Shown here: piece after piece, positions 2,500-60,800 of the stretch
Layout of the letters: every line of letters starts with the position of its first letter
Numbering within the stretch: the stretch's first letter is position 1
From: a virus
Taxonomy: Duplodnaviria; Heunggongvirae; Uroviricota; Caudoviricetes
Length of the DNA: 64,000 nucleotides
Virus record (IMG/VR): IMGVR_UViG_3300033069_001204
Span: 1-64,000 of that record
Strand: one strand, 5' to 3'
The notes under the pieces: model-generated
What the model saw: the letters and a program-made list of their open reading frames with translations, nothing else
Told to the model about the DNA's origin: nothing
The model's database searches: none
Translations under genes and position numbers: made by a program

Positions 2500-4096
2500 T
2501 CAATCTATCATATTCCTTTTGAACGGCCCCTGACTTCAGCGCCTTGAAGCGGGACTCAAAGAATCCAGGGATGTCCATATTCTCATAATCTATTCTTGCG
2601 CTGGACATTGTCGCCAGGTCATCGAAGAGCTCCACAGTGAGCTTGGCATCCTTGTGGAACATTCCCAAATTGACATGCTCATAATCAAGGCAATTCTCCC
2701 TAATGAATTTGTTGATATATGAGAACGAAGCATCCCTGGCATGGGTCTTGTTGAACTTCCTGCTGCAGCCCTTCCAATATGGGCCTAGCTCATCCCTGAA
2801 CTGGCCAGGACATGCTTTAGGGTCTATGGCAAAACTGCCGTCCTCCTGTTCGCCATACGTGTTCTCATAGAGCAGGTCGATGAATTCCAGGACGCCCCAA
2901 TACCAGGCTCGGAACCCGGCATGGTCCTCCTCATTTCCGGTAATGCCTCCAGCCTTTTCGATTTGTATAGCGATGTTTTCAATCAAGTCCGGTTCCCTCT
3001 CCTGGACGAAGGGGAATGGGGAATCCTCGCTTACCTTTTTGAAGCATTCCAAAACATCCCCATTCCCAGTCCCCTTCCCAAGTCCGGATTTGGAGCGGCT
3101 CGAAACTCTGGGACGATAAAGAGTGGGGATTCCTTTCCCTGTGGAGTATGCTATGGTGGCGAGAATTTCCTCAACGGAGAAATCAGCCAGCCACTCAAGA
3201 ATGAGATTTCCATGGGACTTCAACAAAGCCGCTGTGATGGGGACCTTCCTGGACTTCGGAGCGGACTTATTCAATTCAGCCAATTGTTCAATCCAGTTAG
3301 ACAAAGCCTCTTTGATTTGCGGCCATGCGTCATGCTCTTGAAGCTTCAACGGAGATGCTTCGATTATATCATCCTTGGCATTCTCTCCTGATGGCAGTAT
3401 TCCGAGGCCTGAATTTTTTTCTTTCGAAGATCTTTTTATGTCAATAATATTTCTCGAAGAATGAGAGAATTTATTATTAATCTCTAGGGGGTTATATAAG
3501 GGGGGGACATTTTCAGGGGCCATTTTGGGGGTCTGCTTGTATCGTTTTGTATTCAGCTCCTGATTTCCGAATTTGAAAATTTTAAATTCGACCCCATTTT
3601 CCGAATTTGAAAATTTTAAATTCGACCTCAACTTCTCATCATTGAGAACGCTGGAAATATAATCCTGATTCACGGCTCCCATTCTCTCGTTCAGGACCTT
3701 GAAGTTCACCCTGAACCAAATGGCATTCATCTCGTCCCGCCAGTAGTCCAGAAGGTTTCCCGACACCGTATCTTTGGAGGCCCTGGAGGCTATGGAATGC
3801 AGGACGTTCCTGACCCGATGATATGAGAGATGAAGCTCTCCGCATAGAGTCCCGGCGTCGTGGGGAGTCAGGCCCATGCGAATATGGACAGGGGAGCCTC
3901 CTGTCGATAGGACCCTATTGAGGATGAAGGTCAGAAGGTAGGCCGCCTGGAGATCCCCATCGAGCATGTGGAGAATCAATTGGTCTATGATTATTGGCCT
4001 TCGGAGATTGAATTGCTGGAGAGCATCCATAGCAGCCTCAAAATAAATTCCCTGCTGGCTTCTGGTTGGGGGCCAACCCAATGAGATCCGTGCCAA
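2474..4096 (-). CDS. putative replication initiation / helicase-loading protein with an internal AT-rich iteron region
   Basis: 540 aa. Overlaps the start of the helicase gene. N-terminal wHTH-like region. The central low-complexity linker is encoded by AT-rich DNA carrying two 30-bp direct repeats, an architecture like lambda O with ori-lambda inside it. Confidence 0.4.
   Translation of the reverse strand: MARISLGWPPTRSQQGIYFEAAMDALQQFNLRRPIIIDQLILHMLDGDLQAAYLLTFILNRVLSTGGSPVHIRMGLTPHDAGTLCGELHLSYHRVRNVLHSIASRASKDTVSGNLLDYWRDEMNAIWFRVNFKVLNERMGAVNQDYISSVLNDEKLRSNLKFSNSENGVEFKIFKFGNQELNTKRYKQTPKMAPENVPPLYNPLEINNKFSHSSRNIIDIKRSSKEKNSGLGILPSGENAKDDIIEASPLKLQEHDAWPQIKEALSNWIEQLAELNKSAPKSRKVPITAALLKSHGNLILEWLADFSVEEILATIAYSTGKGIPTLYRPRVSSRSKSGLGKGTGNGDVLECFKKVSEDSPFPFVQEREPDLIENIAIQIEKAGGITGNEEDHAGFRAWYWGVLEFIDLLYENTYGEQEDGSFAIDPKACPGQFRDELGPYWKGCSRKFNKTHARDASFSYINKFIRENCLDYEHVNLGMFHKDAKLTVELFDDLATMSSARIDYENMDIPGFFESRFKALKSGAVQKEYDRLIGDDADGN
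3562..3627. repeat. two perfect ~30-bp direct repeats (tttccgaatttgaaaattttaaattcgacc) spaced 34 bp apart, in an AT-rich tract inside the initiator gene
   Basis: Read directly: 3564-3593 and 3598-3627 are identical. The surrounding 3400-3650 is AT-rich, unlike the ~55% GC of the flanks. Candidate iterons or origin. Confidence 0.7.
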
Positions 4097-4226
4097 ATCT
4101 CAAACCAGAGGCCAGCAGGGAATTCTTTGGATGATATCCATGTGGCGGCACGTTTGTTTCTGGTGGCGAGCCAGGGCCTATATTATGCCATGGACCCTGG
4201 AAGTTTTCAAGCTAGTTCCAAAAAGA

Positions 4227-6809
4227 TTATGGAATCCATAGGACATCGAAATCGGTCCAGCCTATCTCCTTCCCATGCCAGTAGAATCTCTTGGAGCCTT
4301 CGATTGTCATTACGCCACAATGCATGACCTGATATTTCATCAGCCCTATCTTGAATGGGGAATAGCTCACCACGAAGCTACAGGATGCCCCACTCAACTC
4401 CATCTCGCAGCGCTCCCCTGTCTCAGTCCGGATGATCGCCAGAGTCCCAGTAGAAGGCAGAGGCGATAGTTCACAGTATCTAGAACCCGTGATGTAGCCG
4501 ATCTGAGTCCATTTGGAATGTTTGGCATCGGTGGGCACTATGGTGAAGCCACCTAGGGTCTTTGATGTCCGACCCGCCCAATTGCCGGCCAGAGGTCCAT
4601 GCGGAATATGTAGGACTGGAATTTCCAGACATACATGGCTGGCCTTGAATCTGCTGTGAGCAAACTCGAAATCGGAGCCTCCTGCGTTGTGAAATGTCTC
4701 TGAGTAGATTGTCGGCATAGTCAGGCAGTTTGACTCTGTTCTGAACATCTGGAAGTATCCTACTGGATCGCTGTGTAGAAAAGCCACATCGTCTTTGTTC
4801 GATCGATCGTTCGTGTATGTAGCGAGCCATTCCTCCCTCCTATCCTCTGGGATATTGAAACGTCCTGCGAAGTATAGAACGTCCTTGTCATAATGTCGGG
4901 ACTCTAGTGTCTCTCTGAGATCATCAGGGAGGATACAGTCCGCATCAGTGAGAATGATGGTATCGCAGGCGGCCATCCCTCCCCACTCGATTCCGGCATT
5001 GATCATGGCTCCCTTATTGAAGGCGGCCCCATTCTTGTGGATGACTTCCATCCCCACAGGATGAGATATCACTCCCAGCATATTGCAGAGCTGCCGGGTC
5101 TGGGCATCCTCGTAGGAGGTCACGACGACCATCCTATCGAAATGCCTTTTGTTCAGCGGCAGGGTCCAGGCCAGCATGTCGCTATAGCCTGCGCAGACTA
5201 TGACACAGCCCAGGACCCCTAGAGGGTAGATCCCATCTTTTGGGGCTTTGGGCTCCTCCATATCCCTTGGAAGCATGCCATAGCTATAGACATCCAGGCC
5301 TGCCAGATGATAGAAATCAGAGACTCCAAGCACCCGACATTCGGTCTTTTTAGAAGCGAAGGAATTATGGGAGTCATGCCAGGCCCGGACGGATGCCTTC
5401 ATCTTGGCTTCGTGGGCATCCGAGGCGCAGAATATGATGCTGTCCGAGTAGTCGAGGACGTCAATGATGGTCTTGACCGGATGCCCGTCGATCTCCTTGC
5501 ATTTTGGATTGCTGTCCCATATCGCTTTGATATTCTTGGGTTCGGGATTGACTTCCAGCATGGTGCTCAGAAAGCGGCCGGCTCCATAGAGGACCACCGG
5601 CTCTGGCCTGGACTCCAGATCATCCCATATCGCCTTCAAGAATTTCTGGTAGCGTGAAGGTTCGCTATCCTTCCCTGAGTAGTCAAGCGTCACGATCTTA
5701 TCCCCCTCATAGTTATCTGGATATCCTTTGGCCGTAGGATGGATTAGGAACGCATTATCTCCCACAATATATTTGCAGCCAGGATTCAAAATGAGCTCTG
5801 CGACTTTCTTCTTGAGCTCATCTTTCATTGCATCAGTGAGAGCAGAAGACCCTGGCTCTAGCAGCCTCCATCCATAGGACTTGATGCTCTCCTCCGTCCC
5901 CGAGATTCTCACAGAGTTGTCGCCATCCGGGAGATAGGGCTCAATAGTCAGGCCGGGTTCCGGATAATCCTCTTTGCGGTATGCTCCAATTGGAAATACA
6001 CATGCTGCCTTCCTTTTTCGAATACCCATGGACTTGAGCCTGTCGGAATGCCATTTGGACACGTAGTCCATCTTATGGCTAGCCACAGTATGTGGGACCC
6101 TGAGCGGAGCCGAGCATAGCTCACAGAACTGAAGCTGCGCTCCGAATTCCTCCGGAGCCCTTTCCCACCAACCCTTTTCAACCTTCCATGCGACATCTCC
6201 AAATGGGGAGTTGTAGAGGATGTCGAGGGCTCCAGCCACTTCGCAGAAGTATGCTCCCTTCGGAGTGATGCTGGCGCTCCACATGTTCTGAATCCAGCAC
6301 GCGTCCCTGAGAGGAATCCATTCCTCATCGGAGATCCCGAAGTCCTTGCGACATCCCAAGAGCATCTGATGCCTGCCTTCATGGCTGTGGTCATTGATGC
6401 ATTGATATGGGAACACGTCCTGTATGAGTTCGAAGTGCTTCCGATATCCTGGACCTAGCGACGTCCACAGTCCACGTTTGGAAAGCAGGACATCGGAGAG
6501 ATGCTTATTGCGATAGGCCGCAAAGTCCTTGACGGCCTGGCGCATGGGCTTGAATGGAGGAGTATGGATCTTGTCTGCGTAGTATTTGACGAAGCTGTCG
6601 AACTTCGGATGGATGGTAGGCTCGCCTCCCATGATTCCGACCATGCCATGGAATCCCAGCATGGAGTCGACAGCCTTCCTGAACTGGCCCTCCTCAGCGA
6701 AGAATGGCTTCGAGTGCCTGCCACAGAACCTCGTGCAGTTTGAACAGGAGTGGGGACATGCATTTGTGAGTTCAATCTGGATGATCTTCTGCTCAGATGG
6801 AGACTTCAT
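4227..6809 (-). CDS. multidomain enzyme: N-terminal radical SAM domain + Rossmann-like middle domain + GT-A (family 2-like) glycosyltransferase domain + C-terminal domain of unknown function
   Basis: 860 aa. Residues 13-30 ELTNACPHSCSNCTRFCG (CxxxCxxC) and MGGEPT are radical SAM signatures. Mid-region YGAGRF has a Rossmann-like glycine motif. GT2-like VIVCAGYSDM...NKGAMINAGIEW...ILTDADCILPDD contains a DxD motif. Confidence 0.6.
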   Translation of the reverse strand: MKSPSEQKIIQIELTNACPHSCSNCTRFCGRHSKPFFAEEGQFRKAVDSMLGFHGMVGIMGGEPTIHPKFDSFVKYYADKIHTPPFKPMRQAVKDFAAYRNKHLSDVLLSKRGLWTSLGPGYRKHFELIQDVFPYQCINDHSHEGRHQMLLGCRKDFGISDEEWIPLRDACWIQNMWSASITPKGAYFCEVAGALDILYNSPFGDVAWKVEKGWWERAPEEFGAQLQFCELCSAPLRVPHTVASHKMDYVSKWHSDRLKSMGIRKRKAACVFPIGAYRKEDYPEPGLTIEPYLPDGDNSVRISGTEESIKSYGWRLLEPGSSALTDAMKDELKKKVAELILNPGCKYIVGDNAFLIHPTAKGYPDNYEGDKIVTLDYSGKDSEPSRYQKFLKAIWDDLESRPEPVVLYGAGRFLSTMLEVNPEPKNIKAIWDSNPKCKEIDGHPVKTIIDVLDYSDSIIFCASDAHEAKMKASVRAWHDSHNSFASKKTECRVLGVSDFYHLAGLDVYSYGMLPRDMEEPKAPKDGIYPLGVLGCVIVCAGYSDMLAWTLPLNKRHFDRMVVVTSYEDAQTRQLCNMLGVISHPVGMEVIHKNGAAFNKGAMINAGIEWGGMAACDTIILTDADCILPDDLRETLESRHYDKDVLYFAGRFNIPEDRREEWLATYTNDRSNKDDVAFLHSDPVGYFQMFRTESNCLTMPTIYSETFHNAGGSDFEFAHSRFKASHVCLEIPVLHIPHGPLAGNWAGRTSKTLGGFTIVPTDAKHSKWTQIGYITGSRYCELSPLPSTGTLAIIRTETGERCEMELSGASCSFVVSYSPFKIGLMKYQVMHCGVMTIEGSKRFYWHGKEIGWTDFDVLWIP

Positions 6810-28341: not shown

Positions 28342-29692
28342 TATAAGCCTCTATTCACTTAGGCCCATAATGGGAATGGGCCGGAACTCCGGTATGGAGA
28401 ACCGGCCAGCTTCCCGTCTTCAATTTCCCGGACTTGGCGCCCTTCAGCTATTCGCCTATCGCGCTGGCTATTCGAATTCCTTGCGGCCCTTCGCTCCCTA
28501 GCTACCGCCGCCTATCCATTCGCATGCCCGGCAAAGCCCAGCCATTCCTATGATGGAGAATGGCCGTCCTTCACCTTCGTCTCGTTGACTATTGTCGTCC
28601 CGTCCAACCCCTTTATGGGAGCCTTGGCATCTGGAGCCCTTTAGCCCGAATAGGCCCTTGATTATTTAATTGGCCTATGGAATTCATCTCCAGCCCTTTT
28701 GCGGCTTCCCAATATTCGATTGGGGGATTTCCTCCTTGAGGGAATTCTGATTCCCTTGGATCTTTCAATGAGCACCGGAGCCTCTAGCGCTCCTTCAATG
28801 ATTCCATTATAGAATGGGATTGCAGAATAGGCAATAGCTTTTTCCGAAAATTTTCGGAAAATAATGGAGACCCTGGAATTGTCCCTGTGGAGCCTGCATC
28901 CCTGGGCGCAGGGTCGAGCCTAATGAGTCCTTAGAGTGGAGTCCTTAAGGCCAATATAGGCTCTTTTTCAGGGCCGGAATCCCAGGGATTCCCTATTCCT
29001 TATTATATAAAGGGAATTTCAGGGGCCAAAACCACGGCCATGGAATCCGGCCATTCCAGCAAAACACGAATCCCATGATGCCATAGGACTATGATATGGG
29101 GAATCCCATGATGTGGGAATACGGGCCATGCAATGCCAGACAGGGAATGACGCCATCCCTGGGAGCCGGGCCGGGCGGGGACGGGGATGGCCCTTATATG
29201 GGAAAGAGGGGAGGGGAGGCGGGACGGAATCCCAGGGGCCTGGGGGCCGGCCGGGCCGCGCGCCGGGGGAGGCTCCCCTCCTCGTGACATTCTCTCGTGA
29301 CATTCTCTCACGACATTCTTTCCATGGCATCAGGCCCATTCCCGGTCTCTTTCCATGGCATCAGGCCCATTCCCTATTCGCCATCCAATCCTCTCCCCTT
29401 ATGGCCTTCCCTATATGCCTTCATCATATCTTTCCCCACATATCCCTCCCATGCCTTTCCTCTATGGGAATATTATGGCCTTCCCTATATCTCTCCATTA
29501 TAATATATAGTTCTCCATATAGGCCTGTCTCCATATATCCATGGTCTCCCCTATTATATTCCCATAGCCATAGTCTCCGGATTTCTCCCCCCGGAAAATT
29601 ATGTCTTCCGTGACAGACATGAAAACCGGCTGTTGGTCTTTTCCTGTATTCCCTATATATTATCCTAGCCAAACCAATAAGGAGTCCATCCA
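28342..29692. promoter_or_regulatory. 1.35 kb non-coding divergent region packed with iterons and palindromes (candidate origin, pac site or regulatory switch)
   Basis: - Only compositionally biased short ORFs.
- Contains: an 8-bp inverted repeat at 28338-28374; a 20-bp perfect palindrome tttccgaaaattttcggaaa at 28841-28860; GGAATCCC(A) at 28976 (itself palindromic), 29068, 29101 and 29226; three tandem 13-bp units at 29283-29321; a 24-bp repeat ttccatggcatcaggcccattccc at 29320-29343 and 29351-29374; atggccttccctatat at 29401 and 29476; a G-run tract at 29160-29280.
- Plus-strand composition switches from C-rich to G-rich across it. Confidence 0.7.
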
Positions 29693-29965
29693 ATGTTCAG
29701 CAATCCGTTCCGTGTCCTTCTGAGGACAGCCCTTAGATTCTTCAGCGCTTCCGGCCTCCTCAACGGGGATAGGGTGCGCAGGACAGAGGATCTATGCAGC
29801 CGCCTTTGTAGATACGGAGATGTCGGATATTCCGAATATCGTGATGAGATCGGAATCGTCGAGCCGAATCCTGATTTTCCCCATGCTTTGGTGAATGTGC
29901 GCTGGATCGGGTCGGGGAAAGTGGATGTCATAAATCCGGAGAACCTTGAATTGGTGGAGCCATGA
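29693..29965 (+). CDS. hypothetical protein (SD aaggag)
   Basis: 90 aa. First gene of the rightward operon. Confidence 0.5.
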   Translation: MFSNPFRVLLRTALRFFSASGLLNGDRVRRTEDLCSRLCRYGDVGYSEYRDEIGIVEPNPDFPHALVNVRWIGSGKVDVINPENLELVEP

Positions 29966-30837
29966 ACATCCTCTACAGGCATCGCAGATTCGGACAACGG
30001 GCATTGCGGACAATCGGGCTGGCCAATGAGATCATTTCCGAGTATCAGGATCAAGGCTTCTCCCTGACCTTGCGCCAGCTCTATTATCAATTCGTGGCCA
30101 GGGGGCTCATTCCGAATTCCCAGCGGGAATACAAGAACCTGGGTTCCGTAGTGGACGATGCCCGCATGGCCGGCCTCATTGACTGGCTGGCCATAGAGGA
30201 TCGCACCAGGAATCTCAGGACCCTGCCTTGCTGGAAATCGCCAAAGGACATAATGTCCGCTGTCGTCGGCCAATACCGCACCGATCCCTGGCTTCTGCAG
30301 TCCAGCCATGTGGAGGTCTGGATTGAGAAGGATGCCCTTGTCGGAGTCATTGAACGCGTCTGCAATAAATGGCGGGTCCCCTTCTTCGCATGTCGCGGCT
30401 ACAACTCCCAGTCCGAACAATGGGCTGCCGGCCGTCGCATGCTGGACGCCTCTGTCGCCGGATATGAGCCCATTGTCCTGCATCTTGGCGATCATGATCC
30501 ATCCGGGATAGATATGACCAGGGACAATGAGGAGCGCCTGTCTTTATTTGCGGAGGGTCCGGTGGAGGTCCGGCGGCTCGCCCTGAACATCAATCAGGTC
30601 AGGAAGCATAATCCTCCTCCCAATCCCGCCAAGGAGACTGATTCGCGCTGCAGTTCCTATGTAAGCCGCTTTGGAAATTCAAGCTGGGAGCTGGATGCCT
30701 TGGATCCCAGAATAATAGAATCCCTGATTGATTCCGAGATACAGTCCATCATAAGTCCATCCAAGTGGAAGGAGGCCATGGCCAATGAGGAATCGGGACG
30801 GGATGCTCTAATTGCCGCTATGGAGGACATGGAATGA
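29962..30837 (+). CDS. compact Spo11/topoisomerase VI subunit A-like protein (CAP/wHTH with a YY motif + TOPRIM)
   Basis: 291 aa. SLTLRQLYYQFVARGLIPN is like the catalytic-tyrosine region RxxYY of Top6A/Spo11. VEVWIEKDALVGVI supplies the TOPRIM Glu (EKD). LHLGDHDPSGIDM matches the TOPRIM DxDxxG motif of Top6A (DADPYGIEI). Confidence 0.55.
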   Translation: MNILYRHRRFGQRALRTIGLANEIISEYQDQGFSLTLRQLYYQFVARGLIPNSQREYKNLGSVVDDARMAGLIDWLAIEDRTRNLRTLPCWKSPKDIMSAVVGQYRTDPWLLQSSHVEVWIEKDALVGVIERVCNKWRVPFFACRGYNSQSEQWAAGRRMLDASVAGYEPIVLHLGDHDPSGIDMTRDNEERLSLFAEGPVEVRRLALNINQVRKHNPPPNPAKETDSRCSSYVSRFGNSSWELDALDPRIIESLIDSEIQSIISPSKWKEAMANEESGRDALIAAMEDME

Positions 30838-31127
30838 TAGTCGTGGAATCGGGCTTTGTCACGATGACATGCCAGACAGTCCTTGAAGGAGGCCTCGGCC
30901 CTGAAGGCGAGTTGTTCTGTCGCCTTATGGATATCTCCGGAATTCTGGAGGTTGGCGGCGTATTCGATATCTGCTTCTATGAATCATGCCGCCTCATTAG
31001 CCGCAGGGTCAGCCCTGAGGATGCCGAGGTCCTCCGGAATATTCTGAAGTCCGGGAGGCCAATGACAATGAAAGGATACGACCATGGCATGCGTGATCAT
31101 ATGGGAATGTGGAAGCGAAACACATAA
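30834..31127 (+). CDS. hypothetical protein
   Basis: 97-aa ORF. Confidence 0.4.
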   Translation: MIVVESGFVTMTCQTVLEGGLGPEGELFCRLMDISGILEVGGVFDICFYESCRLISRRVSPEDAEVLRNILKSGRPMTMKGYDHGMRDHMGMWKRNT

Positions 31128-31256
31128 GTCAAGAGCAGACGCTGAATGCATTTCCAATAGAGGCCACATTAATCTCTCAAATGGAATTCAACGAAATATT
31201 GGAAATTCATTCAATGGAACATTATATTCTTGGAGAATATATAATGGAGAGGACTA

Positions 31257-31574
31257 ATGCGCATAACGATATCTAAAGATTTTACAGATGCTCCAGGAGG
31301 AAGATATATTAAAAATGGTGATTTTTCTGGAGAGTATTTTAGAGAAAAACATTTGGTTCCTGCATTTGACAGGCTCTCTAAAGGAGAAAAACTTATCGTA
31401 AATCTTGATGGTTGTTTTGGATTTGTGACAAGTTTCCTTGAGGAGGCCTTTGGAGGGCTTGCTAGGGAAAAAGGGACAAATGTCGTTCTAGAAAGAATTG
31501 AAATAGAAGATACTGAACAGCCAGAGCGCATAGAGTTGATCAAGTCGTATATTAAGAATGCAAATAACAAATGA
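31257..31574 (+). CDS. STAS-like (DUF4325-type) small protein in an AT-rich moron
   Basis: 105 aa. KLIVNLDGCFGFVTSFLEEAFGGL resembles the DUF4325/STAS pattern (xDFxGVxxISSSFxDEaFG). Local GC is much lower than the flanks. Confidence 0.4.
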   Translation: MRITISKDFTDAPGGRYIKNGDFSGEYFREKHLVPAFDRLSKGEKLIVNLDGCFGFVTSFLEEAFGGLAREKGTNVVLERIEIEDTEQPERIELIKSYIKNANNK

Positions 31575-31583
31575 AGGCTTTAA

Positions 31584-31829
31584 ATGTTAATGGCAATTGA
31601 ACTTATTAAATTGTTGGTGCAAATAGGCCTTGCGACTGCCATTTGTTATCTTGGATATAAACTTTCTGCTTTTAGAGCTGCAAATGAGAAGAAAATAGAG
31701 GTTTGCCTTAAGATTTATGATGAGCTCATATGTGCATTTAATAATGAAGAAGAATTTATAAGAAGTGCAGAAAAAACTGGCCGTAAAGATGAGGTTGTTA
31801 AGCTTGTATTCTCAGGGACAAGGCACTAG
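31584..31829 (+). CDS. small membrane protein (N-terminal TM helix) in the AT-rich moron
   Basis: 81 aa. LLVQIGLATAICYLGY is a hydrophobic helix. Co-directional with the STAS-like gene, 10 nt downstream of it. Confidence 0.45.
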   Translation: MLMAIELIKLLVQIGLATAICYLGYKLSAFRAANEKKIEVCLKIYDELICAFNNEEEFIRSAEKTGRKDEVVKLVFSGTRH

Positions 31830-31888
31830 AAACTTGGAATTACTGGCACGCAGCTGATACTCAAAAACATCAATAGGAGGACATCATA

Positions 31889-32137
31889 ATGGATTTCAGC
31901 GACGCGTTACTACATCTCAAAGCTGGAAGCAAGATTCGCAGAGAGGGATGGAATGGCAAAGGGATCTTCGTAGGAATGGCCGAACCCGGACCCAGCCCGG
32001 ATCTATTCACTGCTCGATGCCTATACATTGACACTACGGGGCTCCGGACCAAAAACAAGAAAGCCCCCAAGTGTCGGGTTCCATGGCTGCCAAGCCATAC
32101 GGATATTCTAGCGGAGGATTGGGAGCTGCTCAAATGA
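31889..32137 (+). CDS. DUF2829-family protein (Thoeris anti-defence Tad2-like)
   Basis: 82 aa. MDFSDALLHLKAGSKIRREGWNGKGIFVGM matches the DUF2829 N-terminal signature ALxxLKxGxKxxRxGWNGKGxF. SD aggagg. Confidence 0.5.
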   Translation: MDFSDALLHLKAGSKIRREGWNGKGIFVGMAEPGPSPDLFTARCLYIDTTGLRTKNKKAPKCRVPWLPSHTDILAEDWELLK

Positions 32138-32526
32138 TCATCCATTATGAATTGACTGGTCTTCCTGCTGAGATCCTGGGATACAGCCTGATAGCGGCCG
32201 CCATTGTCGTAGTCGCTGTGGCGACCATAATTGCCGTTCCATTTCTTGGAGCATTTGCTGAGGGCTTCGGTGATTTGTTTCGAGAATCCAGAATGGCGTA
32301 TCGCCTCACTGTCTTTACGGCGTATCGAATATGCAAAGCAGCCAAACGCCCATTCAGCAGGAAACGCGCATGGCAGACATTTTTTAGAATCAACACCAAT
32401 GCCGCCGCTCGGAGCAGGAATAGACTGTTAGTTCTGAATAAGATTGTCGAGACTATGAATGGCGATATGCAGGATTCCGACAAGCTTGAATGCGTAGCCG
32501 ACATTTTGAACGCTTACAAGGAATAA
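32134..32526 (+). CDS. membrane protein (single TM), start MIIHYE overlapping the upstream stop (ATGA)
   Basis: ORF 32071..32526; the ATG at 32134 is in the ATGA overlap. Hydrophobic stretch AAAIVVVAVATIIAVPFLGAF. Confidence 0.4.
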   Translation: MIIHYELTGLPAEILGYSLIAAAIVVVAVATIIAVPFLGAFAEGFGDLFRESRMAYRLTVFTAYRICKAAKRPFSRKRAWQTFFRINTNAAARSRNRLLVLNKIVETMNGDMQDSDKLECVADILNAYKE

Positions 32527-32607
32527 CGCAATGAAACGCGGAACTCCATTAATTCATCATAGCTGGTGTCCATGCTGCGATAGGGCTATGGCATCTCCTG
32601 GAAGGAA

Positions 32608-33318
32608 GTGTGGAGCCTGCGGACGGAAAGTCAGAAGAATAGGAAACCAAGGAAGGCGCAGATGCCAAAACCTAAATTGAAGCTACAGCCATCCAAGCCC
32701 AAGGCCAAGCCCAGGACGGCGAAGGTCAAGGAGGCCGACGACATTGCCTTGGAGCCGGTCGTCCAGGCCTTCTTCGATAAGCTGCCGGCAAGCCATCAGG
32801 TCAAACCCTCCAGCATGCCTTTGGCTCTAGGCCCGGAGGGCGTGGACTCATGGCTTGCCGGCAGCCCCCAGAAGTTGAAGGATGCCTGCGACGCATACTT
32901 CGAGTCCGTGGATATGCGGAACCTCGCCTTCCAGGACAACAACCCGAAGGCCGAGACGAAGATACCATACACGCATCAAGGCCTATGTCTGTTCCTTGGC
33001 CTGCTCGATCGTTCCAATCTCATCACCCTCCTGAAGTCGGATCCCCATAAGCCGATCATGGCCACAGCCATTCTCCGCATCGAACAGGATATTGTGGAGG
33101 GGACGCTGATGGGAGCATTCAATCCCAAGATGTCCAGCATGTATCTCACGCAATGTCTGGCCTGGCTCGATGGCCGGGGTTCGAAAGGCGGCGGCCCGCG
33201 CTCCGTGGAAGGCTCTGGCGTCCAAATCAACTTCGTGAGTGTGGAGTCCCCGGAGGATTTGAAACGGCTCAATGAGGCCAGGAAGCAGCCCGTCCTTGAC
33301 GTGGGCCAGGAGGACTAG
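32608..33318 (+). CDS. putative terminase small subunit (alternative start ATG 32662, MPKPKLK, with SD aaggaagg)
   Basis: Basic N-terminus followed by a helical domain. Lies immediately upstream of, and nearly abutting, the TerL gene. Confidence 0.5.
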   Translation: MWSLRTESQKNRKPRKAQMPKPKLKLQPSKPKAKPRTAKVKEADDIALEPVVQAFFDKLPASHQVKPSSMPLALGPEGVDSWLAGSPQKLKDACDAYFESVDMRNLAFQDNNPKAETKIPYTHQGLCLFLGLLDRSNLITLLKSDPHKPIMATAILRIEQDIVEGTLMGAFNPKMSSMYLTQCLAWLDGRGSKGGGPRSVEGSGVQINFVSVESPEDLKRLNEARKQPVLDVGQED

Positions 33319-33321
33319 ACC

Positions 33322-34773
33322 ATGGGTTCCGGAACCATTATTCTAAATGTCCTGACGTCCAAAGTCTTCCGTAAGATAAAGGAGGCGGCCGGTCCCTATT
33401 TGACTGAGGAGGAACGCAACGCCAGGATAGCCAGGGGCGAGACGATGTCCGAAGTCCGACACATTGTGCTGTCTGGCTCCAGCCGCTCAACAAAGACCTA
33501 TAGCGCGCTGCAGTTCATAATAAGCTGTTGCCTTGCGAATCCCGGACTTCAATGCGCCATCATAAGGGCCAAGCTGACCTGGCTCCGCAAGACAGTCTTC
33601 AAGGATTTCGTCAAGATCATGCACATGGCAGGGCTCTGGGATCCCTCCAGGATGAACAGGTCCGAGTGGGAATACACTTTCGACAACGGCTCCCAGATCT
33701 CATTCATAGGAATGGACCAGGATGCCGGCTTCGCAAAGGTCCACGGCATGAAGACCGACCTGGCCTTCTATAATGAAATAACGGAGCTCAGCTATGACCA
33801 CGTCCGTCAGGTCGATATCCGAAATACCTGGCTCCAGATCTACGACTTCAACCCGAACTGTCCGGAGCGTTACTGGATCTATGAACGCATCCTGTCCCAG
33901 ACCGGGAAGGCCGTCCACATCCATTCTACATATAAGGACAATCCATTCCTGGAGCGTCGCGTCGTGGAGAGCATCGAAGCCTATGAGCCGACCCCTGCCA
34001 ACATAGCGAGAGGGACCGCCGACAAGACATTCTGGGATATCTATGGCCTGGGCGTCCGCGGCACCATCTCCGGGCTGGTGTTCACCAATTGGAGGATGGT
34101 CAAGGACCTGCCGGATAAGCTGGACAAGCCTGGATATGGAATGGACTTCGGATTCACAAACGACCCCACCACCTTGACATTCTGCGGGCAGACCCCCGGA
34201 GAGATCTGGGTGGATGAGCTCATATATGAACGGGACCTCGTCAATCTATGCGTGCCGAACAATCCGGGCATCCGAAGCATAGAGGGCGAGATGCTCAGGC
34301 TCAAGGTCAAGAAGACCCTGCCGATGTATTGCGAGTCGGCCGAACCCAAGACGGTCAGGGATATGCAGAATGCCGGCTTCAATGCCATTCCGGTCGTGAA
34401 GGGTCCGGGCAGCGTGGTGGCCGGCATCACAGGCATGAAGCGATTCAGGCTGAATGTCACGGAGCGTAGCATCCATATCATAGCCGAGCTCGGCAACTAT
34501 AAGTGGAAGGATCAGAAAGGGTCCCTAGGGGAGGCGTTCGTCAATGAGCCCGTGGACGCCTGGAACCATTGCCTGGACGGCATACGCTACTACGTGATGT
34601 CCTGCGAACCTGGAAGCTGCATGGTGGAGCAGGGCAGGACCGAGATGCTGCCAATAAGAGTGGGACGCGGAGTGGCCAGCCGCAAATATGACATGTATCA
34701 GGGTCCCGATAATGAAGAGGGACAGGAGGCCCATCGCAGATGGCTGGATGCCGTATCCCAGCGAAGTCAGTGA
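33322..34773 (+). CDS. terminase large subunit (ATPase + RNase H-like nuclease)
   Basis: 483 aa. Walker A VLSGSSRSTKTY; nuclease motifs GMDFGFTNDPTTL and DAWNHCLDGIRYYV. Confidence 0.9.
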   Translation: MGSGTIILNVLTSKVFRKIKEAAGPYLTEEERNARIARGETMSEVRHIVLSGSSRSTKTYSALQFIISCCLANPGLQCAIIRAKLTWLRKTVFKDFVKIMHMAGLWDPSRMNRSEWEYTFDNGSQISFIGMDQDAGFAKVHGMKTDLAFYNEITELSYDHVRQVDIRNTWLQIYDFNPNCPERYWIYERILSQTGKAVHIHSTYKDNPFLERRVVESIEAYEPTPANIARGTADKTFWDIYGLGVRGTISGLVFTNWRMVKDLPDKLDKPGYGMDFGFTNDPTTLTFCGQTPGEIWVDELIYERDLVNLCVPNNPGIRSIEGEMLRLKVKKTLPMYCESAEPKTVRDMQNAGFNAIPVVKGPGSVVAGITGMKRFRLNVTERSIHIIAELGNYKWKDQKGSLGEAFVNEPVDAWNHCLDGIRYYVMSCEPGSCMVEQGRTEMLPIRVGRGVASRKYDMYQGPDNEEGQEAHRRWLDAVSQRSQ

Positions 34774-34836
34774 TTTTTGAGAATATCAACGTATAGTATC
34801 CTTGGTTTCCGGAAAACAACCAATTGGAGGAATACA

Positions 34837-35271
34837 ATGGACAAGAAGCCGGCAGACAGCAAGAAGACCGTCGCGTTCAGCGACAGCATGCGCAGAGGCG
34901 CTCGTCAGATGGGATTCGCGGACGACAACGACAGTCTCGCAGCCCTCCTCGCAGGGACCCCCAGCGCTCCGGCGGCGGACGAGACTCCGGCCGCTCCTGC
35001 GGACCAGGCGGCCCACGAAGCCGCAGAGACTCCCGAAAAGGAGGCCATGGAGGAGAAGGGCGTCAAGGAGAATCCCAAGACCCTCATGGACGACATCAAG
35101 AAGGTCCTCGCCAACAAGGACATAGCCAAGGAAGTCAAGGACAAGGGCGAGGCGGTCCTGACCAAGCTGGAAGAGCTTGACAAGAGCGTCGAAGACGCCA
35201 AGACCTTCCTGGCCGAGAACAAGCCGGCGGCCCCAGAGGAAATGGCTGCGGCGGCCCCAGAGGCCAAGTAA
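34837..35271 (+). CDS. Ala/Glu/Lys-rich disordered protein (start MDKKPADSKK; SD ggagg)
   Basis: ORF 34777..35271 with an internal Met and SD. Followed by a strong terminator. Confidence 0.5.
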   Translation: MDKKPADSKKTVAFSDSMRRGARQMGFADDNDSLAALLAGTPSAPAADETPAAPADQAAHEAAETPEKEAMEEKGVKENPKTLMDDIKKVLANKDIAKEVKDKGEAVLTKLEELDKSVEDAKTFLAENKPAAPEEMAAAAPEAK

Positions 35272-57883: not shown

Positions 57884-60800
57884 TTATGCCTCCTTCTTTG
57901 TCTCAGTCTTGGTTTCGGTCTTGGCTGGCGGGGCCTGCTTGGCTCCTCCCTGATACTGCTTGACCACCTTCAGATATGGAGCGTTGTATTTCTTCTCGCC
58001 CACGCTATCCACTGCGGCCCTGGCCCCTTCTGGAGTCATCTTGAACTTCTCCACCAGGAACTTGATGATGCCGTCCTTGCTGAATGTCAGGCCTTCGGAG
58101 CCTTCGACATACACTATGGCGGCATCGTCGACCTCGATGGGTCCTTTCGCGGCCTCAGGCATTAGGCTGTCGATCAGCGACACCCTGGCATGCTTCAGCT
58201 TATCAAGGGCGTCAGTGACCTTGACCATTTTCTCCGCTTGAGCCCTGACCTCTGGGGACAAATCCGACATGGCCATAAAATCATCTCCTATGTTATCATT
58301 GAAACCTTCTGTAGAGCCATCCTCATCCACGATGTCATATTCCTGATCCTGGGGAGCCGCAATAGGGCCTACGATTATTTGACGATTCCCATCCTTATCC
58401 ACCACCACGCGCCGTCTGGACTTGATCTCTTCCAGAGCCTTCTTGCGCAAATCAGCCAAAGCCCTTTTATAGACATCTATTTGTTCTGGGGTGAGAGGGT
58501 TGTCTTTGAAGTCATTGGGGGCATAGGCCTCTATCAGCCCGGCCTTCTCACCCTCTGGAATATCCTCGCTATCCTCAATCTCCTTGCGTAGCGCCTTCAT
58601 GGCTGAAGGCTCCCGGACCGCCCTGCGGAATCCATCCGCGACCATGGCATCCATTATTAGCAGATCATCGGAGTCAAGCTGGATGACTTCCTGCTTGCCA
58701 TCCTGCATCCTGATCTTGATGCTCTTGGAGGCCATCATAGGATGCCAGGCGCTTTCCGGGTGGTCTGAATTATACCTGACCAGAGCTGCATCGAAGTCAG
58801 GGACCGGAGCGCCTATGGCCATGGAGGCCGCGCGGCTGTCGTAGAGGTCCAATTGATATGGAGACCAGATGTAGGATCTCCAGTCTCCGGAAGCCCTGAT
58901 GGCATCCCTGTTCTTGAAGTATTGCAGGATCTGGCCTATTGGAAGTCCGAAGGTTTCCGCAATGGCCCTGACGGGATGATCGACTATGTCGGACAAAGCC
59001 CTGAGCTGTGGAGGCACTATCTGCCATTCCCACGAAGCCTCTCTAAGCTTCTCAGCCTTGACCTTGGCGTCCTTGGACATCATCGCCCAGGCGTAGGATA
59101 TCAGGCCATTGGCGGCTTCGCCCAGGAGCGGAATGCCGCCTAGGACCTGCTGGGCCATTTGCTTGACGAGGTCGTCCGTCCTGGAGAAGTAGGCGAAGCT
59201 TCCTGTGGTGGCGGCGAAGCTTACGAGAGCCGGAGCCACGACATAGAATCCCAGGCCGCTTCCTATCTCCTTGATGCGTTCATACGCCGAAGCATCCCGC
59301 ATATCCGGGCTATAGAGTCCGCGATAGGCCGACTCGAATAGTGCATTCATCTGGCGGTTGAGCGGACCTTTGAACATAGTGAGAAGCTTCCAGGCTCCCG
59401 GCTCACGGAATAGCGTGGGGAGATATCTCCAGTCACCAAGGCTCTGGGTCTTCCTCACCACCTCATCCGCTATTCTGGCAGCGGCCTCCGGACCTTTGGT
59501 CTCGGAGTGCGTGAGATAATGCGCGAGCCAGACATGAACGGCGACTCCCTGGTCCACTTTGGATATTGGAATCATGGAAGTCTGGACGAACCATCTAATG
59601 GATGGCTTGGGCATGTTCTTGACAAGGCCCTCCGGAACTCCAGCCCAAATCATGATTGAGCCTATGGCCTCTCTGGAAGCTCCAGCCGGGATTCCCATGG
59701 CCTCCCTGAGCGACTCCTCGCTGGCGGCCTCTATGCGCTCCGCCAATTCCCTCTGAAGGTTGTGCGGGCGATTCTTCATGAAGGGGCTGGCTTCGTAGAT
59801 CATATTCAAAGTCTTGCCGACCCTGAACACGTCCTGAGGTCCGGGGGAGAGCAAGTATGCCGCCCGTATGGCCGCCGTCGGGCTGCTACCTTTCATTCCA
59901 ACTGGAAGCGAGGAAAGCTGATTGAGCACGGACACCACGCGGAATCCCAAAGAGGATACAGCCATTGAATTCCTGAAGTAGTCCAGGACTCCATCATTAT
60001 TGTTACGATTCCTGCCAAATGCCACGTCCTCAAGCCATTTGCTGACTTGGCGATAAGCCTCTTCGGATCGTAGTTTCATGGCCCTGCTTATGGCCTTGTC
60101 GTTGAGATAGGATGCCGCATGGGTCAAGGCTTCATTGCTGGACACATACCAAGCGGTATCCAGCATATTCCTATTGACTGTCCCGAAATAGCTCAACCGA
60201 TCAAAGCCCTGCTGCCCTCCAGTCCTCTCCTTCGTGCTGGAAGTCCTGGCATTCGGGTTCTGGCGGTAGAGGAGCCTGGCCTTCATGTCGGAGAGGATGC
60301 CGTCCTTTGCGGAATACGAGTCATGGTCCAGGTTCCTGATTGGGAAATAGCCATCGATCTTCTCCATGTCGATGCCATGCTCCCTACGGAACTCCTTATT
60401 GACCATTCCCCATTGGGTATCGGAATACCACTGGATCTGTCTATCGATGGCATCCTTCAGGCTCTGTGGCAGTATCCTCTCCGTCTCGCTTATGACATCG
60501 TGGATGGTGCCCTCCAGGAAGGTCCCGGCAAGATGCTGGATGTTATCCGGATTCTTCGAGTTGGCATATATGAACATCAGGTTGTCCAGAGACATCGGAC
60601 CCAGGTCAATATTCCTGCCACGGACATCCTTGACATGGAGGGTGTGTTGTTTCTTGGAGAGCCCGCCTTTCATGTCCTCCCAGGCCAGTTCATGGTTGGC
60701 TATGGTGGCCTTGCTCATGGCCTCCGATACTTTGAAGTTCTCATTGATGGCGTCGTTGACGACGTCGAACACGTTCCTCTTGAGAGCGGAGTCCTTCACC

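Follow-up and report, generated by a model that had tools for sequence, protein, structure and literature searches.

The closest described counterpart of the locus examined here is VapKSC, a kinase–STAS-antitoxin–toxin defence system with an ssDNA-activated kinase, in which VapK phosphorylates VapS, VapC is released, and the S48A substitution in VapS abolishes defence (Chambers et al., EMBO J 2026, PMC13373217). Kinase–STAS pairs also occur as CapK–CapS, which are transcriptional controllers of immune operons (PMC13373217). The 64,000-nucleotide stretch of phage DNA that we analysed, hereafter the window, codes for phage replication, structural and packaging genes and, within a short AT-rich block, for a standalone STAS protein of the DUF4325 family (ORF A). 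In contrast to VapKSC, this STAS gene is the only intact member of the set, as the kinase gene upstream is down to ~35-45 codons, and the 81-aa transmembrane (TM) protein encoded downstream (ORF B) is not a VapC-like PIN nuclease. Judged from its sequence, the block is very probably a horizontally acquired, ~0.7-kb internal piece of a three-gene cassette (X-A-Y), retaining the end of X, the whole of A and, apparently, the first ~78 codons of Y. The preliminary description had seen in it an autonomous two-gene moron, an interpretation that gives way to that of an internal fragment with a cut-down X and an apparently truncated Y.

The block (31128..31850, + strand) is delimited by composition and by the left and right limits of homology. 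GC is 0.35 at 31130-31870 compared with 0.53 ± 0.035, the sole such dip in 64 kb, so that the sharp fall first noticed is real and the composition is not uniform by windowed calculation. The 700-bp window from 31111 has a GC of 0.351, about 5 SD lower than the 0.530 ± 0.035 of all 700-bp windows, of which none elsewhere falls below 0.42, and 200-bp windows across 31100-31900 give 0.33-0.375 with both flanks at 0.50-0.60. Codon composition agrees, with GC3 at 0.24 in the leader, 0.26 in ORF A and 0.28 in ORF B vs 0.51-0.75 in six flanking genes. The left junction lies at 31128-31150, directly after the stop codon of a 97-aa ORF without family match (30834..31127, + strand) whose GC of 0.52 and GC3 of 0.61 are backbone-like, and the right one at ~31825-31870. 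A search for direct repeats at the two ends, or for a duplicated target site, found none, on which ground we rejected a transposon or homing-type insertion. Promoter-like sites are not enriched (7 vs 3.9 ± 1.9 expected), no terminator-like site was found 3′ of ORF B, an Rfam scan of 28500-32700 returned no RNA family and a tRNA scan no tRNA.

Horizontal origin, as proposed in the preliminary description, is borne out by this extreme composition together with the closest relatives of ORF A, which are 57% identical and come from metagenome-assembled genomes (MAGs) of low-GC Clostridia. Dating the insertion by low GC alone was rejected, since in 98% of 121 loci the cassette has a higher AT content than the flanking DNA; it is only the excess beyond the family mean of 0.08 under the flanks that speaks for recency, and with a GC of 0.17-0.18 under its own flanks the insert belongs to the most extreme 3% of the family. 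Both this tail position and the low GC3 would suit inert debris, i.e., a recent illegitimate-recombination scar, some arbitrary stretch of a prophage or host cassette that was taken up during infection and has no function in the phage, with ORF A intact only because it is short and the event recent. We take this to be a serious possibility, without thinking it probable. It fits with the lack of repeats or other signs of a dedicated capture mechanism, and no close relative that could show conservation was present in the collections searched. In particular, blastn of 29900-35000 against 50,697 phage records gave only distant matches, all to a topoisomerase-like gene; relatives found through that gene reach at most 64% identity in IMG/VR and 59% in JGI metagenomes and have nothing else in common with the window, and relatives of the large terminase subunit (TerL) reach at most 40% identity in the collections searched. 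Against debris, two slightly different genotypes of the metagenome, the window and a twin contig (L026), share the insert in identical form. The six SNPs that distinguish these two all lie beyond the insert and are uninformative on selection.

The segment upstream of ORF A, previously read as the insert's own AT-rich upstream region, is in fact coding and corresponds to the 3′ end of a lost kinase gene, namely the last ~35-45 codons of X (31129..31257, + strand), as identified by an X profile, pairwise BLASTP and composition. A profile of 128 X sequences searched against the six-frame translation of the window gave a single match, in the frame 31072-31254 (E 2.1e-6), which covers profile positions 308-351 of 363. 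Pairwise BLASTP against X C-termini gave E-values from 1.8e-7 to 3.6e-4, with homology beginning at nt ~31129-31150. The remnant (GC 0.34) includes the C-terminal GT..W box and lacks a start codon from which a whole gene could be read. It ends in a TAA stop (31255-31257) that shares its final base with the ATG of ORF A, in the sequence TAATG, and the Shine-Dalgarno sequence that serves ORF A, GGAGAGGA at 31246-31253, lies inside the remnant, as does a promoter-like site at 31199-31228. The remnant also contains a 17-nt inverted repeat (31143-31159 / 31197-31213) with an ordinary folding energy (z −1.7; 11 of 200 shuffles fold equally well).

ORF A (31257..31574, + strand) and ORF B (31584..31829, + strand) are the two co-directional frames of 105 and 81 aa reported earlier. 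The DUF4325/STAS assignment of the first is upheld by an HMM search with Pfam PF14213 (E 3.9e-10, 39.7 bits against a gathering cut-off of 23, profile positions 1-62 of 64), and all 221 ORF A homologues carry the same domain. Against the profile of its own family ORF A aligns over its full length (E 4e-45) with every invariant residue kept, and it is a complete standalone protein, a single STAS domain with no additional domain. Structure comparison of the predicted model recognises the alpha/beta topology of a divergent STAS fold, in which Ser59 stands at the start of a helix (58-72) that follows strand 3 (46-49). This places Ser59 at the canonical STAS phospho-site and makes it the predicted phospho-acceptor. 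The gene has a good Shine-Dalgarno sequence and sits inside a long co-directional gene block, and the completeness of its invariant residues together with this ribosome-binding site is a further argument against inert debris.

ORF B begins 10 nt past ORF A, where the cassette has Y. The single TM helix described earlier was recovered as its one hydrophobic segment (residues 2-20), which is followed by ~60 helical residues. Its assignment relies on this position and on weak matches to Y proteins. When ORF B is aligned with the Y protein of one cassette (L029), the two are 31% identical and ORF B stops at '..SG.R' while Y runs on. A phmmer search against 16,176 ORFs returned Y proteins as the best two non-self matches (E 0.071 and 0.73), and hhalign against a Y subfamily gave P 0.0015 in matching register. 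The pooled Y profile did not detect ORF B (E 3.7), no homologue was found in a set of 5.8e9 proteins, and an exhaustive search of 1.8e9 representatives gave junk only, with P0122 being a tandem-repeat translation. From these comparisons ORF B is probably the 5′ ~78 codons of Y, with its last codons and stop derived from the right junction; the C-terminal ~100 residues of Y proteins are missing. The truncation of both X and Y and the orphan status of ORF B, which has no detectable homologue, would both suit inert debris.

At ~126 of the 163 related loci the DUF4325 gene stands in the middle of a three-gene cassette, with the genes tightly coupled in the order X-A-Y; 13 loci lack the kinase gene. 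X (~340-390 aa) is made up of a STAS domain and a GHKL serine kinase of the SpoIIAB/RsbW type behind a long, basic N-terminal helix, A (~105 aa) is the standalone DUF4325 STAS protein, whose canonical STAS phospho-site is occupied by an invariant Ser, and Y (145-210 aa) usually has one or two N-terminal TM helices and a helical tail. No segment above a simple hydrophobicity threshold was found in ~29 of 135 Y proteins, and Y matched neither PIN nor any other Pfam domain. The expectation that DUF4325 proteins partner with ATPases is borne out by X, whose profile has SpoIIAB as its top four matches among PDB sequences. Pfam HATPase_c_2 and HATPase_c match 8 and 12 of 39 X members, respectively, and a structural model of X matches STAS in addition to SpoIIAB/RsbW, to which the predicted kinase domain is structurally closest. 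The Ser column is kept in 126 of 126 complete cassettes vs replaced (by A, C or G) in 3 of the 13 kinase-less loci (Fisher p = 6.5e-4); being retained with the kinase and sometimes lost without it, the Ser is tied to the kinase.

Compared with VapKSC, the complete cassette has the same gene order, a STAS+GHKL (SpoIIAB-like) kinase, a standalone STAS protein of ~105-116 aa whose Ser/Thr at the canonical phospho-site is absolutely conserved, and an effector. The DUF4325 profile has VapS (9z7o_A) as its sole match among PDB sequences, at a marginal E of 0.51, with the conserved Ser columns aligned. The DUF4325 Ser falls on residue 66 of the 9z7o chain, which would be native S48, a validated phospho-site, if the 134-residue chain consists of an 18-residue tag and the 116-residue protein. 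Besides this marginal similarity of A to VapS, the cassette departs from VapKSC in having a small membrane protein in place of the VapC PIN nuclease as the third gene and a long basic helix at the N-terminus of X. The cassette also shares with CapK–CapS a GHKL kinase with an internal STAS domain and a downstream STAS substrate, which in CapS is phosphorylated on a conserved Ser. However, CapS carries a C-terminal wHTH DNA-binding domain whereas the 105 aa of ORF A make up a STAS domain and nothing else, CapK has an N-terminal HTH where the model of X predicts a single long helix, and a CBASS, Bub or Thoeris operon lies downstream of CapK–CapS rather than one small TM protein.

The classical partner-switching modules SpoIIAB–SpoIIAA, RsbW–RsbV and SiaB–SiaC display the same folds and the same logic of a kinase acting on a phospho-Ser STAS protein, and they supply the best structural matches of X and A. 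They differ in that the cassette is not linked to a sigma factor or a diguanylate cyclase as target, that the X kinase is fused to its own STAS domain, that DUF4325 is a separate Pfam family and that the cassette is carried by prophages and mobile elements. ORF A might act as a mimic of SpoIIAA/RsbV that titrates a SpoIIAB/RsbW-type kinase of the host and so reprogrammes sigma-factor activity during infection, instead of being directed at a defence cassette. Its STAS fold and the canonically placed Ser are compatible with this, and the structural closeness of the X kinase domain to SpoIIAB and RsbW makes cross-talk conceivable. We regard such a hijack of host partner switching as very improbable.

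The cassette is common across many phyla and in prophages (a single-peptide genome scan gave at least 528 confirmed matches, and there were 147 confirmed viral ones), and it is annotated as hypothetical in every record examined. The 148 nearest-neighbour ORFs in 42 viral contigs include repressors (17 and 12) and integrases (~19), besides CII and Ant regulators and tail genes. Marinobacter phage AS1 carries the cassette, as AS1_41/40/39, on the repressor side of Cro/CI, and Francisella phage KIRK, as Fhv_0046-0048, between cI and int. Further genomic neighbours include OLD and AbiEii-type ATPases, mad2/mad3-like genes, PDC-S02 and ResIII. PADLOC-DB v2 gave no match for ORF A, ORF B, the flanking ORFs or the X and Y proteins of two complete cassettes. 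In the literature, DUF4325 occurs in three papers, only as an annotation, and a search for publications on a kinase–STAS–TM cassette found none; the STAS and GHKL mentions in a paper on jumbo phages proved unrelated to it.

By analogy with VapKSC, we tentatively propose the following mechanism for the complete cassette. The STAS protein A would hold the effector inactive until an infection or damage signal activates the X kinase, which would then phosphorylate the conserved Ser on A. The phosphorylated STAS protein would release the membrane effector Y, and the cell would be stopped or killed. The prophage exclusion genes rexAB of lambda adjoin cI, and the cassette adjoins the repressor in temperate phages in a similar manner, is co-directional with it and ends in a membrane protein, although there is no kinship in sequence or fold and the fragment in the window lies outside any lysogeny module. 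A position on the repressor or integrase side, as for rexAB, would suit an abortive-infection or exclusion module borne by prophages. A defence role for the complete cassette in prophages is thus plausible, as inferred from this analogy.

It does not follow that the fragment in the window defends anything. In the moron reading of the preliminary description, ORF B would be a membrane effector and ORF A its regulator, the pair protecting an infected cell or a lysogen by defence, superinfection exclusion or abortive infection. Exclusion and Abi systems often use membrane effectors, and complete cassettes occupy classic moron and lysogeny positions in prophages. Moreover, six loci with DUF4325+Y and no detectable X (L062, L091, L094, L102, L107, L181) suggest that a kinase-less pair may be viable. 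Yet the kinase, i.e., the sensor or switch enzyme, is missing from the insert, so that nothing would release the effector, and ORF B is without the C-terminal portion of Y. The two frames match nothing in PADLOC, are followed by no terminator and are accompanied by no excess of promoter-like sites, and neither an integrase nor a repressor was found among the ten large ORFs scanned in the window. We therefore judge a working two-gene moron improbable, and the defence or superinfection-exclusion role once suggested is unlikely for a kinase-less fragment in a phage in which no lysogeny genes were detected.

The surroundings of the insert offer a different perspective. The gene immediately 3′ of it (31889..32137, + strand; 82 aa), which the preliminary description had missed, is Tad2-like, with a match to Pfam PF11195 (E 6.1e-20, 72 bits against a cut-off of 25, profile positions 1-72 of 73) and to phrog_872 and phrog_1048. 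Tad2 is Thoeris anti-defence 2, a DUF2829 sponge (Yirmiya et al., bioRxiv 10.1101/2023.05.01.538930). The Tad2-like gene itself has a backbone-like GC of 0.53, lies outside the insert and is unrelated to DUF4325. Its stop is overlapped by the start of a 130-aa ORF (32134..32526, + strand) with one TM segment (19-37), which is a called gene in the twin contig and belongs to the same small-gene accessory stretch before TerS; a longer ORF that overlaps it has no family match. TerS (32608-33318) and TerL (33322-34773) follow. The insert is upstream of the terminase, as stated earlier, but it does not directly adjoin TerS, from which the Tad2-like gene and the 130-aa ORF separate it. The Tad2-like neighbour marks the stretch as an accessory, anti-defence region and tips the balance towards anti-defence.

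We consequently favour, tentatively, the reading of the insert as a recently captured fragment in which the STAS gene, left without its kinase, serves as antitoxin or decoy, which would make ORF A a candidate anti-defence gene. Taken whole, including the identification of the block as a fragment, this statement falls somewhat short of an even chance in our estimation, and its functional part, the proposed action of a STAS 'antidote' in trans, is likewise possible rather than probable. With no kinase and a crippled effector, the STAS 'antidote' is the sole working part of the insert. ORF A would be expressed from the + strand gene block of the phage, beside the Tad2-like anti-Thoeris gene, and would act in trans against a cassette of the same kind encoded by the host or by a prophage, where it could either hold on to Y or occupy the kinase as a decoy substrate. 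Phage antitoxin mimics and decoys have been proven experimentally in T4 Dmd, directed against RnlA/LsoA, and in the pseudo-ToxI of ΦTE. The likeness to these is confined to the proposed logic, by which a neutralising half without its toxin disarms the host copy; they are unrelated proteins or RNAs of proven function, whereas the activity of ORF A is inferred.

Solo DUF4325 genes, with neither X nor Y and of native composition, are found in unrelated viral contigs (L113/L117, L116, L121, L141). Their maintenance at native composition in several unrelated phages argues against debris and, together with the Tad2-like neighbour and the good Shine-Dalgarno sequence of ORF A, for an anti-defence gene. 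In one of them (L141) the Ser is replaced by Ala, the equivalent of the VapS S48A substitution. In the same direction, the strong pressure on phage genomes with respect to size and deletion, and the fact that the insert adjoins an anti-defence gene, speak against inert debris. Other observations weigh against anti-defence. The insert is very poorly ameliorated and may have arrived too recently for an intact ORF A to be informative, and it keeps pieces of both neighbouring genes, which resembles a random cut more than a tidy capture. ORF A retains Ser59, so that a host kinase could still turn it off, and it is just 50-57% identical to its nearest cassette-borne relatives. Similar 5′-cut cassettes in bacterial genomes (e.g., L100 and L106) show that the cassette undergoes this kind of decay, again in keeping with debris.

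A broader proposal joins the two halves of this argument: the cassette would be an undescribed, widespread abortive-infection or exclusion system that works by phospho-switch release of a membrane effector, and the solo phage DUF4325 proteins would constitute a new anti-defence family of 'stolen antitoxins' or kinase decoys, comprising ORF A, the solo genes L113, L116 and L117 and the Ser-to-Ala variant L141. We consider it doubtful that both halves hold jointly. Marinobacter phage AS1 and Francisella phage KIRK are cultured phages with the full cassette, which makes experiments feasible. If the proposal is true, the three-gene kinase–STAS–membrane-protein module would have DUF4325 as its phospho-switch, antitoxin-like subunit, and the VapKSC/CapKS principle, described only in 2026, would extend to effectors of another class and to a far larger family of genes. 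This would support the view of GHKL-kinase/STAS pairs as modular triggers for bacterial immune effectors. The position of ORF A beside Tad2 would add evidence for the clustering of anti-defence genes and their discovery by guilt by association, and the kinase-less STAS genes of phages, if they are anti-defence factors, would clearly exemplify how a phage can disarm an abortive-infection system with the captured subunit that neutralises it.

Between approximately 31100 and 31900, 200-bp windows drop to a GC content of 0.33–0.375, against 0.50–0.60 on both sides, and the 700-bp window from 31111 has a GC content of 0.351, compared with a mean of 0.530 ± 0.035 for all 700-bp windows in the 64 kb; at this window length, the AT-rich block is the only region of the 64 kb below 0.42. 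Third-position GC is likewise low (0.24–0.28 in the block versus 0.51–0.75 in six flanking genes). The sharp compositional anomaly in the preliminary description is thus borne out, as are its two co-directional genes: ORF A (31257–31574, plus strand; 105 aa) matches Pfam DUF4325 (PF14213, E 3.9e-10, above the curated threshold), and ORF B (31584–31829, plus strand; 81 aa) carries one hydrophobic segment at residues 2–20, in keeping with the N-terminal transmembrane helix assigned to it. What does not survive is the picture of a two-gene moron with its own leader, since the block is very probably a middle fragment torn from a three-gene cassette, X–A–Y, that encodes a kinase, a STAS protein and a membrane protein.

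The window encodes a phage helicase, ligase, tail fibre, head protease, TerS and TerL, and contains no tRNA genes. The block does not directly adjoin the terminase: a gene resembling Thoeris anti-defence 2 (Tad2; 31889–32137, plus strand; PF11195, E 6e-20) lies directly 3′ of the insert, and a 130-aa single-transmembrane ORF without family (32134–32526, plus strand), whose start overlaps the Tad2-like stop, also intervenes before TerS. Together with a 97-aa ORF on the 5′ side (30834–31127, plus strand), they make up a run of small accessory genes between a topoisomerase-like gene and TerS. The 291-aa product of the topoisomerase-like gene (29962–30837, plus strand) matches phrog_6247 (‘DNA topoisomerase’, E 3e-110), shows just a faint N-terminal resemblance to Topo VI-A in Pfam, and recurs at 40–64% identity in more than 100 viral and metagenomic contigs that have nothing else in common with the window phage. 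Further upstream, about 1.3 kb without convincing ORFs (~28350–29690) separates divergent minus- and plus-strand gene blocks. This region is rich in repeats, with an exact 27-nt direct repeat at 29317 and 29348, a 30-nt repeat at 29399 and 29473, GGGCCGGAATCCCAGGG in three copies and a 13-nt tandem triplication at 29281; its GC content ranges from 0.70 to 0.41, its GC skew reaches −0.57, it matches no Rfam family, and it may be an origin or regulatory region. A very large ORF of 1958 aa (57884–63760, minus strand), downstream of the structural genes, takes up the window's right end.

ORF A falls within a large standalone DUF4325 family of ~105 aa, for which we found 221 matches, the nearest being 57% identical; at least 528 family matches were confirmed in a genome scan and 147 in a viral scan. 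We compared 160 loci (80 in genomes spanning many phyla, 80 in IMG/VR), and their neighbourhood is near-constant: the DUF4325 gene (A) lies in the middle of a compact cassette of three genes. The upstream gene, X (~340–390 aa), often has a stop overlapping the start of A, and the downstream gene, Y (~145–210 aa), usually encodes a protein with one or two hydrophobic segments at its N terminus and a helical tail after them. Profile classification yielded 126 complete cassettes, 13 loci in which the kinase gene is missing and a few with an internally truncated X, the class to which the window was assigned.

A sign of this truncation lies immediately upstream of ORF A. When all 64 kb were translated in six frames and searched with a profile of 128 X proteins, exactly one match emerged (E 2.1e-6), in the frame 31072–31254 of the plus strand, covering positions 308–351 of 363. 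Compared one by one with X proteins by BLASTP, this frame gave E-values from 1.8e-7 to 3.6e-4 over the last 30–37 residues of X, with GTLYSWRI in the window corresponding to GTLF/YSWRI in X. The homology starts at nucleotide ~31129–31150, coinciding with the GC drop, and the frame closes with a TAA that shares its last base with the ORF A start codon (TAATG), the same coupled junction that complete cassettes have. Taken together, these matches and the junction identify the supposed AT-rich upstream region as the 3′ stump of a kinase gene. Within it lies a 17-nt inverted repeat (31143–31159 and 31197–31213; 94% complementary, 37-nt spacer) with no unusual folding energy (z −1.7), overlapped by a promoter-like site, TTGGAA-18-TATATT (31199–31228). 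Four IMG/VR loci (L125–L128) carry two cassettes in tandem (e.g., L125 4205–5942 and 7795–8749), one divergent but complete and the other cut at the 5′ end like that of the window, with an X remnant of ~65 aa, DUF4325 and an intact Y. The last 40–75 codons of X are kept in independent 5′-cut cassettes (the window, L100, L106 and L125–L128), and this shared retention may point to a promoter inside that segment.

At the other end, ORF B occupies the position of Y, 10 nt 3′ of ORF A. It is 31% identical in alignment to the central part of Y from a comparison locus (L029), with IELLxLxV, CLKIxDE and KDE..K.V.SG.R as common motifs, and ends at ‘...SGTRH’, where the L029 protein runs on for ~85 more residues. 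In a phmmer search of 16,176 ORFs its best two non-self matches were Y proteins (E 0.071 and 0.73), and profile comparison with a Y subfamily gave P 0.0015 in the same register. Since neither of two very large protein searches returned a homologue of ORF B, we can only infer that it is a truncated Y, from position, architecture and weak similarity and not from demonstrated homology.

The invariant residues of X fit the GHKL boxes (E..N...HA, DxGxG, RGKGL, GT..W); the best four matches of its profile in the PDB are SpoIIAB (E ≈ 0.015), its middle region weakly matches STAS antagonists, and Pfam detects HATPase_c_2 in 8 and HATPase_c in 12 of 39 members. X is therefore a SpoIIAB-type serine kinase preceded by an N-terminal helix and a STAS domain, which gives substance to the earlier suggestion that DUF4325 proteins partner ATPases. 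Ser59 of ORF A lies at the N terminus of the helix after strand 3, the canonical STAS phospho-site, and its column holds Ser in 126/126 complete cassettes, while it is replaced in 3/13 kinase-less loci (Fisher p = 6.5e-4): by Ala in a 460-kb viral contig (L141 7944–8306), Cys in L121 (7977–8336) and Gly in L039 (6001–6342). The whole set contains four substitutions, three of them in kinase-less loci; the fourth (Gly) occurs in a locus with X kept and no detectable Y. No other internal evidence speaks as strongly for phosphorylation of A by X at this residue as this coupling of serine and kinase.

Perhaps the closest parallel is provided by the CapK–CapS and VapKSC systems (Chambers et al., EMBO J 2026; PMC13373217). 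VapK, a STAS-GHKL kinase with ssDNA as its presumed activator, phosphorylates Ser48 of the 116-aa STAS antitoxin VapS and thereby frees the PIN toxin VapC; the operon guards E. coli from phage Bas42, and VapS S48A abolishes protection (PMC13373217). X–A–Y shares with VapKSC the gene order, both folds and a conserved phospho-site. The sole sequence match of the DUF4325 profile in the PDB is ‘Escherichia VapS’ (9z7o), a marginal relationship (E 0.51) in which the Ser column aligns with chain residue 66; if an 18-residue tag accounts for part of the 134-residue crystallised chain, this would be native Ser48. However, X–A–Y has a membrane protein as effector in place of a PIN nuclease, which rules out membership of VapKSC. 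CapK is an HTH-STAS-GHKL kinase and CapS a STAS-wHTH repressor (PMC13373217); because ORF A is without a wHTH domain, CapKS is ruled out as well. No PADLOC model matches any cassette component, and our literature search found no paper describing the cassette.

Among the 148 ORFs nearest to the cassette in 42 viral contigs, transcriptional repressors (17) and CI-like repressors (12) dominate along with integrases (~19 ORFs, five PHROGs), CII-like activators, anti-repressors and tail genes. The cultured Marinobacter phage AS1 (L350, MK088078) carries a full cassette at 2871–4797 (AS1_41/40/39, each labelled ‘hypothetical’ in the record) on the repressor side of its switch, following a 135-aa gene divergent from Cro/CI. 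In lambda, rexAB sits on the repressor side, next to cI, and the AS1 cassette thus holds an equivalent position. Francisella phage KIRK has its cassette (Fhv_0046–0048) between cI and int, and both cultured phages are ready experimental systems. Neighbours in bacterial genomes include OLD-family and AbiEii-type ATPases, mad2/mad3-like genes, PDC-S02, PD-(D/E)xK nucleases, ResIII and methyltransferases; these defence-type surroundings are only suggestive, the counts having no baseline. Raw PADLOC counts, likewise without baseline, among 150 nearest-neighbour ORFs of L030–L089 are five mad3 (best E 4e-49) and three mad2, both of the MADS system, three PDC-S02 and two Old.

Cassette GC is lower than flank GC in 98% of 121 loci (mean deficit 0.08), as is typical of mobile accessory genes, and the deficit of the window insert (0.17–0.18) falls in the 3% tail of the family. 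With the nearest relatives of ORF A in Clostridia MAGs, this upholds the proposed horizontal origin and is consistent with an insert that came recently from a donor of low GC. The block has no direct repeats at its edges, a twin contig of 3.7 kb in the same metagenome carries an identical insert, and no close relative of the window phage was found in any collection searched.

We tentatively propose the following mechanism for the complete cassette. A would keep Y inactive until a signal switches on X; X would then phosphorylate the serine of A, which would let go of Y, and freed Y would act on the membrane, aborting infection or excluding a competing phage. With the kinase lost and Y crippled, the only intact component in the window is the ‘antidote’, ORF A, and it is improbable that ORFs A and B form the defence or exclusion moron first envisaged. 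ORF A could instead act in trans against host defences, as an antitoxin or kinase decoy, a reading that we hold tentatively, at somewhat under an even chance. It is favoured by the directly adjoining Tad2-like anti-Thoeris gene, and by the retention in ORF A of all invariant residues and a good Shine-Dalgarno sequence inside a long co-directional gene block. Unrelated phages also keep solo DUF4325 genes of native composition that have neither X nor Y within ±2.5 kb, in the replication module of a 25%-GC phage (L113/L117) and in L116, L121 and the 460-kb contig L141; in the last, Ser is replaced by Ala, and the equivalent VapS S48A abolishes VapKSC defence. Counting against an anti-defence role, the insert is young and cut untidily on both sides, and Ser59 remains phosphorylatable. 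That the block is inert debris is the main rival and only slightly less probable than the anti-defence reading; hijack of a host partner switch by ORF A, conceivable for a STAS protein with its phospho-site in place, is very unlikely.

The block brings to light a large VapKSC-like prophage module that had gone unannotated, and it offers a concrete candidate role for DUF4325. It also raises the testable hypothesis that phages redeploy the STAS subunit of this cassette as an anti-defence factor.
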